From IMG/VR virus record IMGVR_UViG_3300037493_001250: 20,000 bases of DNA. One strand, 5' to 3'. This DNA comes from an uncultured virus (IMG/VR IMGVR_UViG_3300037493_001250). Taxonomy: Duplodnaviria; Heunggongvirae; Uroviricota; Caudoviricetes. The position numbers were made by a program, and so were the translations under genes. Position 1 is the stretch's first letter. Every line of letters begins with the position of its first letter. Below the pieces are notes generated by a model. That model saw only the letters and a program-made list of their open reading frames with translations, did not search any database and was not told where the DNA came from. Shown here one piece after another: positions 8,280 to 14,595 of this stretch.

Positions 8280-10157
8280 CTAGAATGGTGCATCTCCATC
8301 ATCATCCTTGTGAACCTCGTAAAAGCTTTGGTATGGTTTCTTGTCTGTATGAGTTTCAGTTGGCATGAACCTGTTGTTCTCTAATGGGTCTATCCCGTTA
8401 AAGATAAAACGTCTTTTCCAATAATCAAAGGTTGCATCTATCTTACCCTTTTTAAATAACCGCTGCTTCTTTACTTTTTTAGTTTCTATTTCACAGGCAT
8501 TACTTGTTGGGTCTGTCAAGTTTAATGGCCTGTGGTAAACCATAATGTTATCCATCTTGTTGGCCCACATTGCTCCACCTGCTAAATCAAAAACATCAGG
8601 CATAGGGTAGTTACCATCTGCGTTCTTCTGCATCTTTGTTGGATGTGCAATAACATTAAAGAACACGCTATTCTCTTTTGCGAAGCGTGAGAAGTCTCCA
8701 AGGGCAGACTCAAGGTATTTGTCATCCCTACCATTAAACTTACCGTAGTCATTCGTTAACTGATTGAACGGATCTAATATTACACCAGTAACTTTTTTAG
8801 TTATAATAAGCTCCAAAAACTTAGCTTTGATTGTCTGTGGTGTTGGACTAAGTGTTTCAGGGTACACATAAAAGAAATGTTCTGTAACAAAATCGTATGC
8901 CTTCTTAAATACTTCCTTACTTACTCTCGTTTTATTTTCAGGAGTAAGATGCGCCCCTATTAATCTTTCCGCAAATGTAAAGTACCACTCATCTGCTGGG
9001 TAGTTCTCAGGAGAGTATACGGCCCACTTATCACCATTGTAATAACTTTTAACAAGTGCTAGAAACTCAATATACTCTGACTTACCACTATTCGCAAGAC
9101 CTGATGTTAATGTAATCTGTCCTCTTTTCCATTTGAAGATTTGGTCTACAGCAGGTATGTGTGTTGTTTCTGCACTCTCGTAACCATTATCGTACAATGC
9201 TTCTGCGGCATCCCAAACTTGCTCACCATAAATAACATCTTGCAACTTGTACCCTTCTTCTAATATCTTAGGGTTTATCTCAACAAGTGTTTCTCTATTT
9301 AGTATCTTATTGTTTTCAAAGTACTCAGTTCCTTGCTTGTGTACGTTAGCTTTGTATGCACTCTCAATTGCTTTGATTGCTTCGTTACGTGAGAAGTCGC
9401 TATCTCTTCCTAAAAAGTCCGTAGCAATAAATCCTTCTGCAACATACATATCAATACCAAACCTGCAACAAGCTGCTGCTAACTTAAAGATAAAAAGATT
9501 TCTTTGTCCACTAACAAATGCATCGTTTCTGTTTTCAAGCCATGTTAATATACGCTTGTACTTCTCGTAGTCATCCCTTACGGCTTCTGTTATTTCAATC
9601 TTCTCACGCACTAACTCGTACTGCTTCTCTTCAATAAAATCATCCCATACCTTGCAGTGCTCGTTAATGTAGATGTTCTCATCAACACTCTCGTAACACA
9701 CCCTGCTAATATTAATGCCTGTAGGGTCTACGTGTGGGAAACGTACTTGAATAGATTTAAAATGTTCTCTGTGTTTTTCAAGGTTCTTAATTTTGAATAG
9801 TGCTTTTACACCTTTGCCGCTTGGACTAATCCAACACGCATAAGTGTGCTCACTCATTTTAAGTTCCGTCTTCGTCATTTGAGCTGTGACATCGCTGTCC
9901 ATATCAAAGTCAAGGCAGATAAATCCACTATGCCTTACAAGGCCAGTGTCGATTCTAGATGTGAACTCTCCACTAAATAGTACACAAGGTAATTGCTTCT
10001 TTAACTCAGCTATTTCATTTGAGTCTTCACTAGCACGAATCTTGTCTACCAAGTCTTTAGTAGTCTTCTTAGGCTTCTTGATGCGTTCTAATGCAAACGA
10101 TAGAGCCTTGTGATGATAGTTCTTGGTGTCGGTTATTTGTTTGAAAAATGTAATCAT
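8280..10157 (-). CDS. primase-helicase: BT4734/VirE-N primase domain, PriCT-like domain, SF4 (DnaB/Twinkle-like) helicase
   Basis: LKKQLP...HSGFICLDFD...SPSGKGVK; GQRN..F..A; Walker A SGLANSGKS, Walker B ILDPFNQL, IAHPTK. Confidence 0.9.
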   Translation of the reverse strand: MITFFKQITDTKNYHHKALSFALERIKKPKKTTKDLVDKIRASEDSNEIAELKKQLPCVLFSGEFTSRIDTGLVRHSGFICLDFDMDSDVTAQMTKTELKMSEHTYACWISPSGKGVKALFKIKNLEKHREHFKSIQVRFPHVDPTGINISRVCYESVDENIYINEHCKVWDDFIEEKQYELVREKIEITEAVRDDYEKYKRILTWLENRNDAFVSGQRNLFIFKLAAACCRFGIDMYVAEGFIATDFLGRDSDFSRNEAIKAIESAYKANVHKQGTEYFENNKILNRETLVEINPKILEEGYKLQDVIYGEQVWDAAEALYDNGYESAETTHIPAVDQIFKWKRGQITLTSGLANSGKSEYIEFLALVKSYYNGDKWAVYSPENYPADEWYFTFAERLIGAHLTPENKTRVSKEVFKKAYDFVTEHFFYVYPETLSPTPQTIKAKFLELIITKKVTGVILDPFNQLTNDYGKFNGRDDKYLESALGDFSRFAKENSVFFNVIAHPTKMQKNADGNYPMPDVFDLAGGAMWANKMDNIMVYHRPLNLTDPTSNACEIETKKVKKQRLFKKGKIDATFDYWKRRFIFNGIDPLENNRFMPTETHTDKKPYQSFYEVHKDDDGDAPF

Positions 10158-10232: not shown

Positions 10233-10284
10233 CCTTATCAATGAACAAGTTAGATAAAAAAAATAACTTAAACCAATAAACAAC

Positions 10285-12917: not shown

Positions 12918-13388
12918 TTATTTTAGTGTTACCTTAATACCTTCACTTGCTGTCTTAGTTGGTGGAAACAACTTCACACCATTCTCATCCATTATTGTAG
13001 CGTTTTCAGGTATAGCCTTTAAGAATGTCTCACGCAACTTTATTTTCTCTTGCAACTCTTTTAACTCTAATTGCATCTCATCCCATTCTATATCCCCACA
13101 CACAGTATAGTCATACTTAGGGCTAATGTTCTCTGAGTACTCAATCTTTACACCATGCAAGTCAAATGTCTTACCATACTTCTTTGCTTCAGTAGATACC
13201 ATCTCACGCACCTCTTTGTTTGCCAGTAAATCTTTAATTGTAGTTTCTACTGCTTTAAGTTGTATATAATAAGAAAGAGGATTAGAGTATCCATCCTTTA
13301 ATTCAGTTACCGTTTTGTTAACGAATAATTTGATTTGGTCTTTTGTGCTTGGCATAAGAGCCATTACACCAGTTGTGTTTTCTATCAT
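12918..13388 (-). CDS. phage protein with coiled coil
   Basis: 156 aa; YDYTVCGD followed by coiled coil; has its own promoter. Confidence 0.8.
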   Translation of the reverse strand: MIENTTGVMALMPSTKDQIKLFVNKTVTELKDGYSNPLSYYIQLKAVETTIKDLLANKEVREMVSTEAKKYGKTFDLHGVKIEYSENISPKYDYTVCGDIEWDEMQLELKELQEKIKLRETFLKAIPENATIMDENGVKLFPPTKTASEGIKVTLK

Positions 13389-13410
13389 AGTTTTGTTGTT
13401 ATTTCAATTA

Positions 13411-13486
13411 CAAATGTAATACAAAAATAAATAAATACAAATATTATTTTTTTTACTTGCTATTTATAAAAAAGGTATTACTTTTG
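13411..13486. promoter_or_regulatory. divergent promoters (TTTG-N19-TACATTTG minus 13411-13441; CTTG-N19-TACTTTTG plus 13456-13486), each with GTAWTAC
   Basis: Consensus matches. Confidence 0.8.
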
Positions 13487-13490
13487 TCAT

Positions 13491-13566
13491 CGTGAATTAG
13501 TTGTTGATTCAGTTAAGTTGTTTTCATGGTTTAATACCCCTGCCTAGTGTGGGGGTATTATTTTTT
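13491..13566 (+). ncRNA. predicted ~75 nt antisense sRNA
   Basis: Own promoter, no ORF, U-rich single-stranded body, strong terminator. Confidence 0.7.
13532..13566 (+). terminator. intrinsic terminator
   Basis: TAATACCCCTGC-CTAGT-GTGGGGGTATTA followed by T6. Confidence 0.85.
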
Positions 13567-13575
13567 AAAAATAAA

Positions 13576-13606
13576 TTTGCATAATTAAAAATCCATATTA
13601 TATTTG
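13576..13606 (+). promoter_or_regulatory. promoter TTTG-N19-TATATTTG
   Basis: Full consensus match. Confidence 0.8.
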
Positions 13607-13609
13607 CCT

Positions 13610-13713
13610 CGTTGATACGGTCAAGTGTACAACGGGTATCTAAAGACATTGCTTCTTTACAGAGGCAAAAACCATAAAACAACCCGCAAGCCCTTGACCC
13701 TTGTGGGTTTTTT
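13610..13713 (+). ncRNA. three-hairpin leader/attenuator RNA with loop-loop complementarity, ending in a terminator
   Basis: HP1 loop GGTCAAG (13619-13625) complementary to terminator loop CTTGACC (13693-13699); stem AACCCGCAAG/CTTGTGGGTT plus T-run. Confidence 0.7.
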
Positions 13714-14130
13714 ATGACCTATTAACATAAGGATAGCAACCATCGAGTGTATGTTCCGAGCGGGGACGCATCTTGACAAAAACAAGTAAAAATATTTCTT
13801 TTAAATAAAATGCAAGGCTGTATGACACCTTCCTGCTTTTAGCCATTCGACTGACGAACTCATTGACGAGTACTAGTGGTAAGAGGTAGTCAAACTTCCT
13901 TTAGGGGGTAGGGGGTTTGACACCTTTTTCTTACCTTCTCCTTTCGGAATCTTTTTCGGAGTACTAATCGCTGGCGAAGAGTACATATGCTTGAAGTCCT
14001 TACCATGTAAACAATCGAGGAAGCCGCAGATTGTTGGATTAGAATAAACGTAGGCGTAAGCAATCTCATGGCGAAAGCAAAAAAAAAAAGAAAAAGTAAG
14101 AGGATACCCACTAGCAATGTTTGTTGCCTG
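13714..14130 (+). other. GC-richer structured non-coding region with G5-TA-G5 tract and A11 tract (candidate ncRNA or origin)
   Basis: Several local and long-range complementary segments; no credible ORF. Confidence 0.5.
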
Positions 14131-14138
14131 AAAATAAA

Positions 14139-14170
14139 TTTGCATATTACAATATAACGTATTACATTTG
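14139..14170 (+). promoter_or_regulatory. promoter TTTG-N20-TACATTTG with TATTAC and GTATTAC boxes
   Basis: Consensus match. Confidence 0.8.
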
Positions 14171-14187
14171 TATAAATAATAAATAAC

Positions 14188-14595
14188 ATGAAGACAGCAA
14201 AAGTAGATGTAGTTACATTTAAGAAAGAGTTCACAAGCCAATACGGTACATTGTTCTCGTTTGAAGTTAAGTTTAACAATGGTGATACTGGCCTTTACAA
14301 CTCAAAAACAAAAGAGCAATCTAAGTTCATTGTAGGTGTAGAAGTAGAGTATGAGCTTGAAACTAAAACAAACGACAGAGGAAGTTGGAACGTGATTAAG
14401 CCTGTTATGGCACAGAAGCCATTTGGTGGAGGAGGATTCAAGCCAACACCTAAGAACGAGAATAGTATAATAGCTCAAAGTAGTATCAAAGCATCAGTAG
14501 AATTGATTTGTGCAGGCAAGATTGACATTAAAGACTTGTTGACTACTGCTGAGAAGATAATGATTTGGGTAAAAGAAAAAGGTAAACAAGAATAA
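14188..14595 (+). CDS. putative OB-fold ssDNA-binding/recombination protein
   Basis: Beta-rich N-terminus, Gly linker, IIAQSSIKASVE helix; position before a NinB-like gene. Confidence 0.55.
   Translation: MKTAKVDVVTFKKEFTSQYGTLFSFEVKFNNGDTGLYNSKTKEQSKFIVGVEVEYELETKTNDRGSWNVIKPVMAQKPFGGGGFKPTPKNENSIIAQSSIKASVELICAGKIDIKDLLTTAEKIMIWVKEKGKQE

Follow-up and report, generated by a model that had tools for sequence, protein, structure and literature searches.

What does a small RNA (sRNA) do when it is encoded beside a leader with which it can base-pair at the foot of that leader's terminator? The question is raised by positions 13389-14187 of a 20,000-nucleotide (nt) stretch of DNA (the window) from the uncultured virus record IMGVR_UViG_3300037493_001250 of IMG/VR. 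These 799 base pairs (bp) separate two divergent operons and comprise, from left to right, a leftward promoter (P_L, minus strand), promoter P1, the sRNA (RNA1), its terminator T1, promoter P2, the leader RNA2, its terminator T2, ~420 nt without a conserved long open reading frame (ORF) and promoter P3, ahead of ORF 14188 (Table 1). An earlier reading made from the letters alone (the sequence-only reading) had proposed an RNA-only switch, in which RNA1 sets termination versus readthrough at T2, or else a leader that sponges RNA1. We find that RNA1 is a genuine conserved element, built, to judge from its sequence, like a trans-acting sRNA, and that it represents a new phage sRNA family of a familiar kind. 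The most likely reading, held tentatively, is that in phages with the window's version of the P2-P3 segment (type A) RNA1 is accompanied by a decoy or target cassette. A T2 switch is unlikely, and of the two options of the sequence-only reading the leader as sponge is the more likely.

A conserved small RNA beside an exchangeable cassette

RNA1 lies outside coding sequence, has its own promoter and Rho-independent terminator and contains no conserved ORF. The sequence-only reading had described two tandem units here, each with its own promoter and terminator, and its coordinates and letters were correct. The RNA1 fold has a z-score of -3.45, with one of 200 shuffles equally good, and the T1 hairpin by itself reaches -15.6 kcal/mol. 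Production of RNA1 as a 75-nt transcript, its pairing in vivo and the effects of that pairing are what we infer.

Both flanking proteins have close relatives. A profile of one of them, of 156 amino acids (aa), retrieved 12 metagenome loci (L095-L106), 10 of which cover the region; L101 and L104 end before it. RNA1, with promoter, core and terminator, is present in all 10 relatives spanning the region. The core is its most conserved portion; L102 and L103 have a divergent 5' part. Across the 10 rows of alignment A2, which leaves out L097, the string GAGTTG(T)TTTTCATGGTT is invariant except for an extra T in three rows, and it is unpaired in the consensus structure. The core variants found are the extra T, in L097, L098, L099 and L100, and a G to A change in L097. 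The T1 stem is preserved through one-sided (wobble) changes, with no pair changed on both sides, and the P1 box is kept in nine of the 10 relatives, L097 having the variant ATATTACCTTTG. A covariance model, R1, was built without L097 and scored 84.6 bits on that locus, against 103.6 bits on the window copy (by construction). Searched over 34 sources (485,218 bases), it retrieved one new member, L097, and one weak match in L080 (E 0.71).

The Rfam comparison that the sequence-only reading had suggested yielded no matching family for RNA1. There were no matches at the gathering score in the whole window. At E<=10, five matches fell in 13300-14300, all far under threshold, the best weak one for RNA1 being JA04 (31.8 bits vs 81), and four relatives gave one weak match. 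Exact patterns for RNA1 plus T1, for T2 and for the type-B leader described below had no matches in IMG/VR. The core 16-mer occurs there at 43 loci, none in an RNA1 context and many antisense of gene starts, which fits the core as an anti-start-codon sequence. A CRISPR-repeat mimic, a tracrRNA-like RNA, a retron non-coding RNA and a small ORF inside RNA1 were each considered and dropped, with no supporting features.

In contrast to RNA1, the segment that follows it is exchanged between relatives. Homology with L095, L096, L098, L099, L102, L103 and L106 extends from the 156-aa gene through 13606/13607, the end of the P2 box; the match to L105 extends no further than 13566, and L097 is rearranged. 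In the relatives that reach far enough, homology restarts at 14131. The P2 -33 segment AAAATAAATTTGCATA (13568-13592) is duplicated there as the P3 -33 segment (14131-14155; repeat family D3). One breakpoint of the polymorphism falls where the P2 -7 box ends, the other at the repeated -33 segment (window 13607-14130 vs L095:1572-2717 and L103:1087-2355). Between them, L095, L096, L098, L103 and L106 carry a type-B leader of ~100 nt and ~1.1 kb for O-like/DnaD-like initiators (PHROGs matches, E 3e-30 to 5e-3) with the internal iterons GTGTCAAAA / TTGACACC. In L099 the type-B leader gives way to other sequence, after which the right-hand portion of the window's cassette follows; the L102 and L105 contigs end within or just past the type-B leader. 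Among relatives, the window's leader is shared only with L100 and the X15 contig. No initiator was found in the window with tblastn; the motif TGACACC does occur, at 13823 and 13918, although the initiator gene with its internal iterons is missing.

In L097 (640-3060) the module P1-RNA1-leader-initiator is inverted relative to the 135-aa and 156-aa genes, and a deletion between TTTGCAT repeats has removed the spacer and the -7 box of P2. By eye, this locus also shows a GIY-YIG-like remnant between leader and initiator, and an added 211-aa gene before the 156-aa gene that resembles a class II aminoacyl-tRNA-synthetase core. The type-B leader is structured, with six of 25 predicted pairs changing on both sides among seven sequences, and had no Rfam match in the sources searched; it is a candidate for a new cis-regulatory RNA of phage replication genes. 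The locus illustrates how promoter repeats allow the exchange of whole control cassettes, here a leader with an initiator gene for a cassette without a conserved long ORF.

Table 1. Features of the intergenic region and related elements (positions in the window unless a locus is named)
Feature	Coordinates	Strand	Description
P_L	13411..13441	-	leftward operon promoter (first gene 13388-12918); -33 TTTG; -7 box GTATTACATTTG at 13411-13422
P1	13456..13486	+	RNA1 promoter; CTTGC -33-like element; phage-type -7 box GTATTACTTTTG at 13475-13486
RNA1	13491..13566	+	small RNA of ~75 nt; ends predicted from promoter box and U-run
RNA1 core	13515..13532	+	single-stranded, conserved, AAGTTGTTTTCATGGTTT; antisense of start-codon region AACCAUGAAAACAAC
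T1	13532..13566	+	intrinsic terminator of RNA1; 12-bp stem (13532-13560), 5-nt loop, U6
P2	13576..13606	+	generic Bacteroidetes-type promoter; TTTGCA, N19, TATATTTG
Type-A cassette	13607..14130	+	variable, P2 -7 box to P3 -33 element; no conserved long ORF
RNA2	13610..13716	+	type-A leader, ~100 nt; hairpin 1 (13610-13634), hairpin 2 (13649-13668), A-rich linker with site 1, T2
Site 1	13669..13683	+	AAACCATAAAACAAC; complement of RNA1 GTTGTTTTCATGGTTT (13517-13532); 15 Watson-Crick bp and a bulged C
T2	13681..13714	+	terminator; 10-bp stem (core 13681-13709), 9-nt loop, U6
Site 2	14002..14015	+	ACCATGTAAACAAT; 6+7 bp, one U-U mismatch, one G-U; -14.1 kcal/mol with core
P3	14139..14170	+	rightward operon promoter; TTTG -33 and GTATTACATTTG box (14159-14170)
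Start-codon region of ORF 14188-14595	14187..14198	+	CAUGAAGACAGC; 12 bp, 2 G-U, -16.9 kcal/mol with core
GTATTACNTTTG box copies	3837, 4682(-), 8050(-), 10221, 13411(-), 13475, 14159, 16094(-)		phage-wide -7 box
Type-B leaders	L095:2603-2720(-), L096:1610-1727(-), L098:2683-2799(-), L099:1080-1197(-), L102:64-181(-), L103:2241-2358(-), L097:928-1045(+)		leaders of relatives

Sites complementary to the RNA1 core

The pairing that the sequence-only reading had noticed between RNA1 and the leader was confirmed in full, down to the last three pairs, which lie in the bottom of the T2 stem. In the RNA2 fold, 13669-13672 of this site 1 are single-stranded, and the only pairs that 13673-13679 make are A-U pairs with the U-tract. 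A second site (site 2), absent from the earlier description, lies further down the cassette and is present in L099 and L100; its 3' half forms the 5' arm of a hairpin at 14008-14033. Both sites sit in linkers immediately 5' of a hairpin, a location typical for accessible sites, and both share with gene starts just the 14-nt core, without extended similarity.

Within two edits, the complement of the core was found at four sites on both strands of the 20 kb: RNA1 itself, 1463 (-), 13670 and 14002-14015. At least one such site occurred in the 524-nt cassette in 66 of 3000 dinucleotide shuffles and at least two in none of the 3000, so that the relation between RNA1 core and cassette is not random, with the reservation that the p-value of site 2 is post hoc, the site having been discovered after the fact. 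Site 2 and the start region of ORF 14188 have five substitutions between them; three of these still allow a wobble pair (U-G or G-U), which is what one would expect if RNA pairs with RNA.

In the reading that we favour, RNA1 would be a conserved, separately transcribed sRNA of an uncultured group of freshwater phages of the Flavobacteriia type, base-pairing through its unstructured core (A)AGUUGUUUUCAUGGUU, putatively antisense of an A-rich start-codon region. The segment 13607-14130 would be one of two alternative P2-P3 cassettes, composed of RNA2-T2 and ~420 nt and bearing two target-mimic sites. In type-A phages, RNA1 would pair with the cassette transcripts, which may act on it as decoy or sponge or may themselves be what it regulates; the main effect would not be control of T2. 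If the cassette sites are indeed decoys, the phage would encode an internal sRNA/sponge pair.

Besides the post hoc nature of site 2, several observations weigh against this reading. Whether the pairing at site 1 beats chance depends on the measure. An exact Watson-Crick run of 15 pairs with one bulge was reached in 1/600 and 0/600 shuffles, and the -15.5 kcal/mol of the 20-nt core against the leader in 15/1000, 3/1000 and 14/1000. The -16.8 kcal/mol of the 45-nt 5' part, with the permissive loops of RNAduplex, was reached in 484/1000 and 564/1000, which is chance level, and a permissive Smith-Waterman score was matched by 195/1000 and 184/1000. Nine of the 10 relatives are of type B and lack the cassette leader site, which implies that the conserved role of RNA1 must lie elsewhere. 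In L100, RNA1 has an extra U facing an unchanged site 1, which widens the bulge from 1 nt to 2 without compensation. Compensatory changes between RNA1 and site 1, which the sequence-only reading had proposed to look for, did not appear, nor did they for any other RNA1 pairing: the extra-U and G to A variants face unchanged sites, in a sample with too few variants for a proper covariation test. The start regions of both flanking first genes are modest matches to the core, and their conservation is explained by their being coding. Cofolding RNA1 and RNA2 in trans gives -60.7 vs -56.4 kcal/mol for the monomers, a small net gain of -4.3. X20, a metatranscriptome contig from a type-B relative, spans RNA1 but is 2 kb long and may be DNA carry-over.

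Another explanation is that the cassette complementarity has no function, that RNA1 targets lie elsewhere (candidates being the start of ORF 14188, further genes of the phage and host mRNAs) and that the sites are A-rich look-alikes, or relics of start regions that recombination at the repeated promoter segments left behind. We regard this as possible, if on the doubtful side. The sequence-only reading had predicted that site 1 would rank top, but in a scan of the core against both strands of the window the best non-self match was the start of ORF 14188, followed by a site at 12952 (-15.9 kcal/mol), with site 1 tied third. The pairing of the core with the start of ORF 14188 is predicted at -16.8 to -18.7 kcal/mol in four of six relatives, and at -10.5 and -13.1 in the two with the extra U, again uncompensated. 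The core complement is moreover a common gene start, no covariation was detected, and the cassette is a mosaic with repeated promoter pieces (D3) at its flanks and a segment, 14057-14082, that is 73% like the start region of ORF 14188 (family D4). On the other hand, a functionless complementarity does not account for two sites in 524 nt against 0/3000 composition-preserving shuffles, nor for a likeness to gene starts that is confined to the 14-nt core. A further core-like sequence, AAACCAATAAACAAC at 10270-10284 (+), abuts the ATG of the exonuclease gene (gene 10285); it is two positions off site 1 and gives -14.1 kcal/mol with the RNA1 core.

Terminator control, antitermination and the cassette RNA

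The switch of the sequence-only reading would act in trans, RNA1 binding nascent RNA2 at site 1 and opening the base of T2, which would set termination versus readthrough into 13714-14130 and the P3 operon. We consider it very unlikely. The duplex does cover the bottom three pairs of T2, the pairing is rare when measured as a Watson-Crick run, and full occupancy of the 15 nt lowers the T2 hairpin from -12.5 (extended form -17.3) to -6.6 kcal/mol. Even then a 7-bp G+C-rich stem, a G and U6 are left, and at equilibrium in the trans cofold T2 retains nine of its 10 pairs for a gain of just -4.3 kcal/mol. From the general kinetics of intrinsic termination, binding would be needed within the ~30 nt between site and U-run. 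Furthermore, the target is missing in nine of 10 relatives and uncompensated in L100, no conserved long ORF lies between T2 and P3, and the rightward operon has a strong promoter of its own in P3. With a leader that can be swapped in this way, the RNA-only switch did not hold up as the system of this locus; as most relatives lack the cassette, it would be at best a lineage-specific add-on.

A version in cis would have transcripts from P1 that pass T1 carry the core and pair with site 1 ahead of the synthesis of the T2 3' arm, so that readthrough of T1 favours readthrough of T2 and transcripts from P2 stop at T2. In the fold of 13491-13716, the helix between core and site 1 belongs to the minimum-energy structure, with probabilities of 0.85-0.9 for 11 central pairs and 0.17-0.62 at the ends, and all 15 pairs form in folds ending at 13690 or 13699. 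The leader of L097, having lost the P2 -7 box, directly follows T1, which makes P1 readthrough transcripts plausible in this phage group. Against this stand the strength of T1, the nine pairs of T2 that still form in the full-length fold, and the type-B leaders, which lack equivalent complementarity: in eight type-B relatives the best Watson-Crick run between RNA1 and leader is 5-6 (64-100% of shuffles) and the energies are reached by 34-92%, and a motif search, the only search made there, found no site within two edits of the core complement in L097. No alternative antiterminator fold appeared in RNA2, the cofold or the cis fold, at most the three bottom pairs of T2 being lost. Such a cis mechanism therefore seems quite improbable.

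A broader proposal joins these elements: a mobile, apparently non-coding type-A cassette would have replaced the initiator gene, and its two mimic sites would couple RNA1, as the conserved riboregulator of the early/replication control region in a phage group of the Flavobacteriia type, to T2 and to the fate of the cassette RNA, either in cis on transcripts that read through from P1 or in trans. We think this unlikely; if true, it would be an exchangeable RNA-RNA control module of a sort not described for Bacteroidetes phages.

RNA1 might also be no riboregulator. In phage lambda, the constitutive promoter pR' yields a short terminated transcript, 6S RNA, with genes lying beyond the terminator tR' and the antiterminator Q allowing their expression. 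By this model (pR'-6S RNA-tR'/Q, or nut/put), RNA1 would be a promoter-proximal terminated transcript under processive antitermination, its core would be bound by a protein or by polymerase, or be an operator in the DNA, and the copies of the repeated motif would likewise be DNA sites. Tandem terminators (T1 and the leader hairpin) precede the replication-initiator gene in nine of 10 relatives, the motif is an inverted repeat at the DNA level, and L097 lacks P2, all of which would suit such an arrangement. However, no second copy of RNA1 or of the core is found behind the other seven promoters of its class in the window, neither an antiterminator gene nor a Q-like gene or binding site was identified, the core is not a dyad, and RNA pairing is the better fit for the wobble-compatible substitutions seen in the sites. 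Antitermination is thus an improbable explanation.

The cassette itself begins with a well-structured leader. RNA2 folds at -36.2 kcal/mol (z -4.47), with none of 200 shuffles as good, and hairpin 2 shows one compensatory G:C to A:U change between window and L100. The T2 core (13681-13709) has -12.5 kcal/mol and its extended form (13673-13716) -17.3, followed by a U-run; since the A-tract 13673-13679 can pair with the U-tract, T2 looks like a bidirectional terminator. The loop of hairpin 1, GGUCAAG (13619-13625), is exactly complementary to CUUGACC (13693-13699) in the T2 loop, both being the same in L100, and a kissing-loop contact inside RNA2 is possible from these letters. The TTGACCCT motif of the loop pair recurs at the base of a long hairpin in type-B leaders.

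Beyond T2, the overall structure of 13714-14135 is unremarkable (z -1.27 on the plus and -1.90 on the minus strand). The long ORFs 13873-14241 (-) and 13890-14279 (-) were rejected as genes, being truncated in L099 and L100. Block 13965-14130, common to L099 and L100, contains a small basic ORF at 14068-14157 (+), MAKAKKKRKSKRIPTSN..., whose first 17 residues are preserved except for substitutions and one extra residue in a lysine-rich stretch, the poly-A differing in length by 3 nt, which keeps the frame. Two RNA libraries, each from a separate study, yielded short contigs over just this block (X16, 13923-14173; X19, 13969-14158). X15, a 375-nt contig from a run labelled RNA-Seq, covers 13553-13928 and has the type-A leader with site 1 unchanged; it may be DNA, as it includes the promoter. 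These contigs give neither ends, strand nor level of a transcript.

Known systems, promoters and setting

By analogy, the closest logic appears to be that of P1 c4, P4 CI and prophage anti-sRNAs such as AgvB. In P1/P7 c4 and P4 CI, as here, a small phage RNA stands at the start of a transcription unit, and two short stretches complementary to it follow in the direction of transcription. Both are processed from an operon transcript, and their pairing blocks the expression of an antirepressor or replication gene; the operon controlled by P4 CI is the replication operon. RNA1 differs in having its own promoter and terminator, in resembling no Rfam family in sequence or structure, in the restricted distribution of its sites (site 1 in two of the 11 group genomes, site 2 in three) and in that no antirepressor or replication gene follows these sites in the window. 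c4 RNA is mentioned in a review of phage-derived sRNAs (PMC12197685).

AgvB-type prophage anti-sRNAs are described as target mimics that titrate an sRNA (PMC4104026, PMC12197685). The type-A cassette would likewise offer a short RNA on a mobile segment, with a mimic of an sRNA target site in an accessible region, titration being putative here; unlike AgvB, both partners are phage-encoded and adjacent, and the host is of the Bacteroidetes type, from which Hfq-type chaperones are not known. Lambda OOP is a terminated phage RNA of ~77 nt beside replication genes (PMC12197685). OOP is antisense to its target cII, whereas RNA1 is clear of any gene and shares its strand with its candidate sites.

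The sequence-only reading had also named pT181 attenuation (RF00242) as an analogue, next to c4 and CI. The two downstream sites bear out the comparison with c4 and CI, short of Rfam homology; that with pT181 goes no further than a small RNA pairing with a leader beside an intrinsic terminator, which in pT181 stands before a replication gene. The pT181 countertranscripts are made from the opposite strand, are fully complementary and induce the terminator on binding. RNA1 is instead a separate gene on the same strand, ~45 nt upstream of P2, with a 15-bp pairing and no antiterminator fold, so that neither the antisense geometry nor the exclusive folds of pT181 apply. The sole RF00242 match in the window lies elsewhere, at 14083-14173 (-), with 24.3 bits vs a threshold of 56.

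sRNAs of Bacteroidetes phages appear undescribed. No word starting with Bacteroid- or Flavobacter- occurs in the main text of a 2025 review on phage-derived sRNAs (PMC12197685), and a literature search on phage-encoded small RNA in Flavobacterium gave no relevant title among the matches listed. RNA1 offers a clean, conserved candidate, with a seed seemingly aimed at A-rich start regions. The Bacteroidetes host group is reported to start translation without Shine-Dalgarno pairing, and a seed aimed at start regions would suit hosts that initiate in this way.

The window has eight matches to the Bacteroidetes promoter pattern TTTG-N17-21-TAnnTTTG vs 1.24 expected. The sequence-only reading had noted that only the sRNA promoter has the GTATTAC box. 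This holds between the two units, where P1 alone carries it; the box is nonetheless not specific to the sRNA, as the extended phage -7 box GTATTACNTTTG is a phage-wide motif with eight copies in the 20 kb vs 0.03 expected. P1 is a member of this main promoter class of the phage. A TTG/TTTG element lies ~20 nt upstream of every copy; most copies stand right before an ORF start codon, and the box probably marks one temporal promoter class. The strongest sigma-70-type match of the region, TTGACC-16-TATAAT (11/12) at 13624-13597 (-), overlaps P2 and hairpin 1; it is missing from the type-B relatives and probably irrelevant in a Bacteroidetes-type host.

Gene content points to a source phage of the Flavobacteriia type. 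The primase/helicase (8280-10157, minus strand) matched 202 phage records, among them 177 Flavobacterium phages and nine Cellulophaga phages, all with <60% identity; nearby genes encode an exonuclease, a DUF1064 resolvase, an HNH endonuclease and a NinB-like protein. The runs containing the stretch are freshwater and sediment metagenomes. Among named phage records there were no DNA matches to the intergenic region or to the window, and no match for the 485-aa protein. In IMG/VR, the flanking 135-aa protein had no loci and the 156-aa protein one distant locus, and in the ESM Atlas the 135-aa protein matched unnamed viral clusters only. A blastn comparison of the intergenic region with the 94 loci fetched before the metagenome relatives gave motif-level matches only, a pattern search of GTDB genomes gave three matches, all unrelated, and ARAGORN detected no tRNA or tmRNA in the window. 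The closest IMG/VR relative has a primase and an exonuclease 95-96% identical to those of the window; its contig stops just beyond the exonuclease gene, before the region, and the sole match of this record to the region is a 43-nt, promoter-like one. Finally, the stretch 13400-13499, between the divergent P_L and P1, has the lowest G+C of the region (0.16) and lies near the turn of the cumulative GC skew, and it is possible that it serves as an unwinding element or origin in a phage without an O-like initiator.

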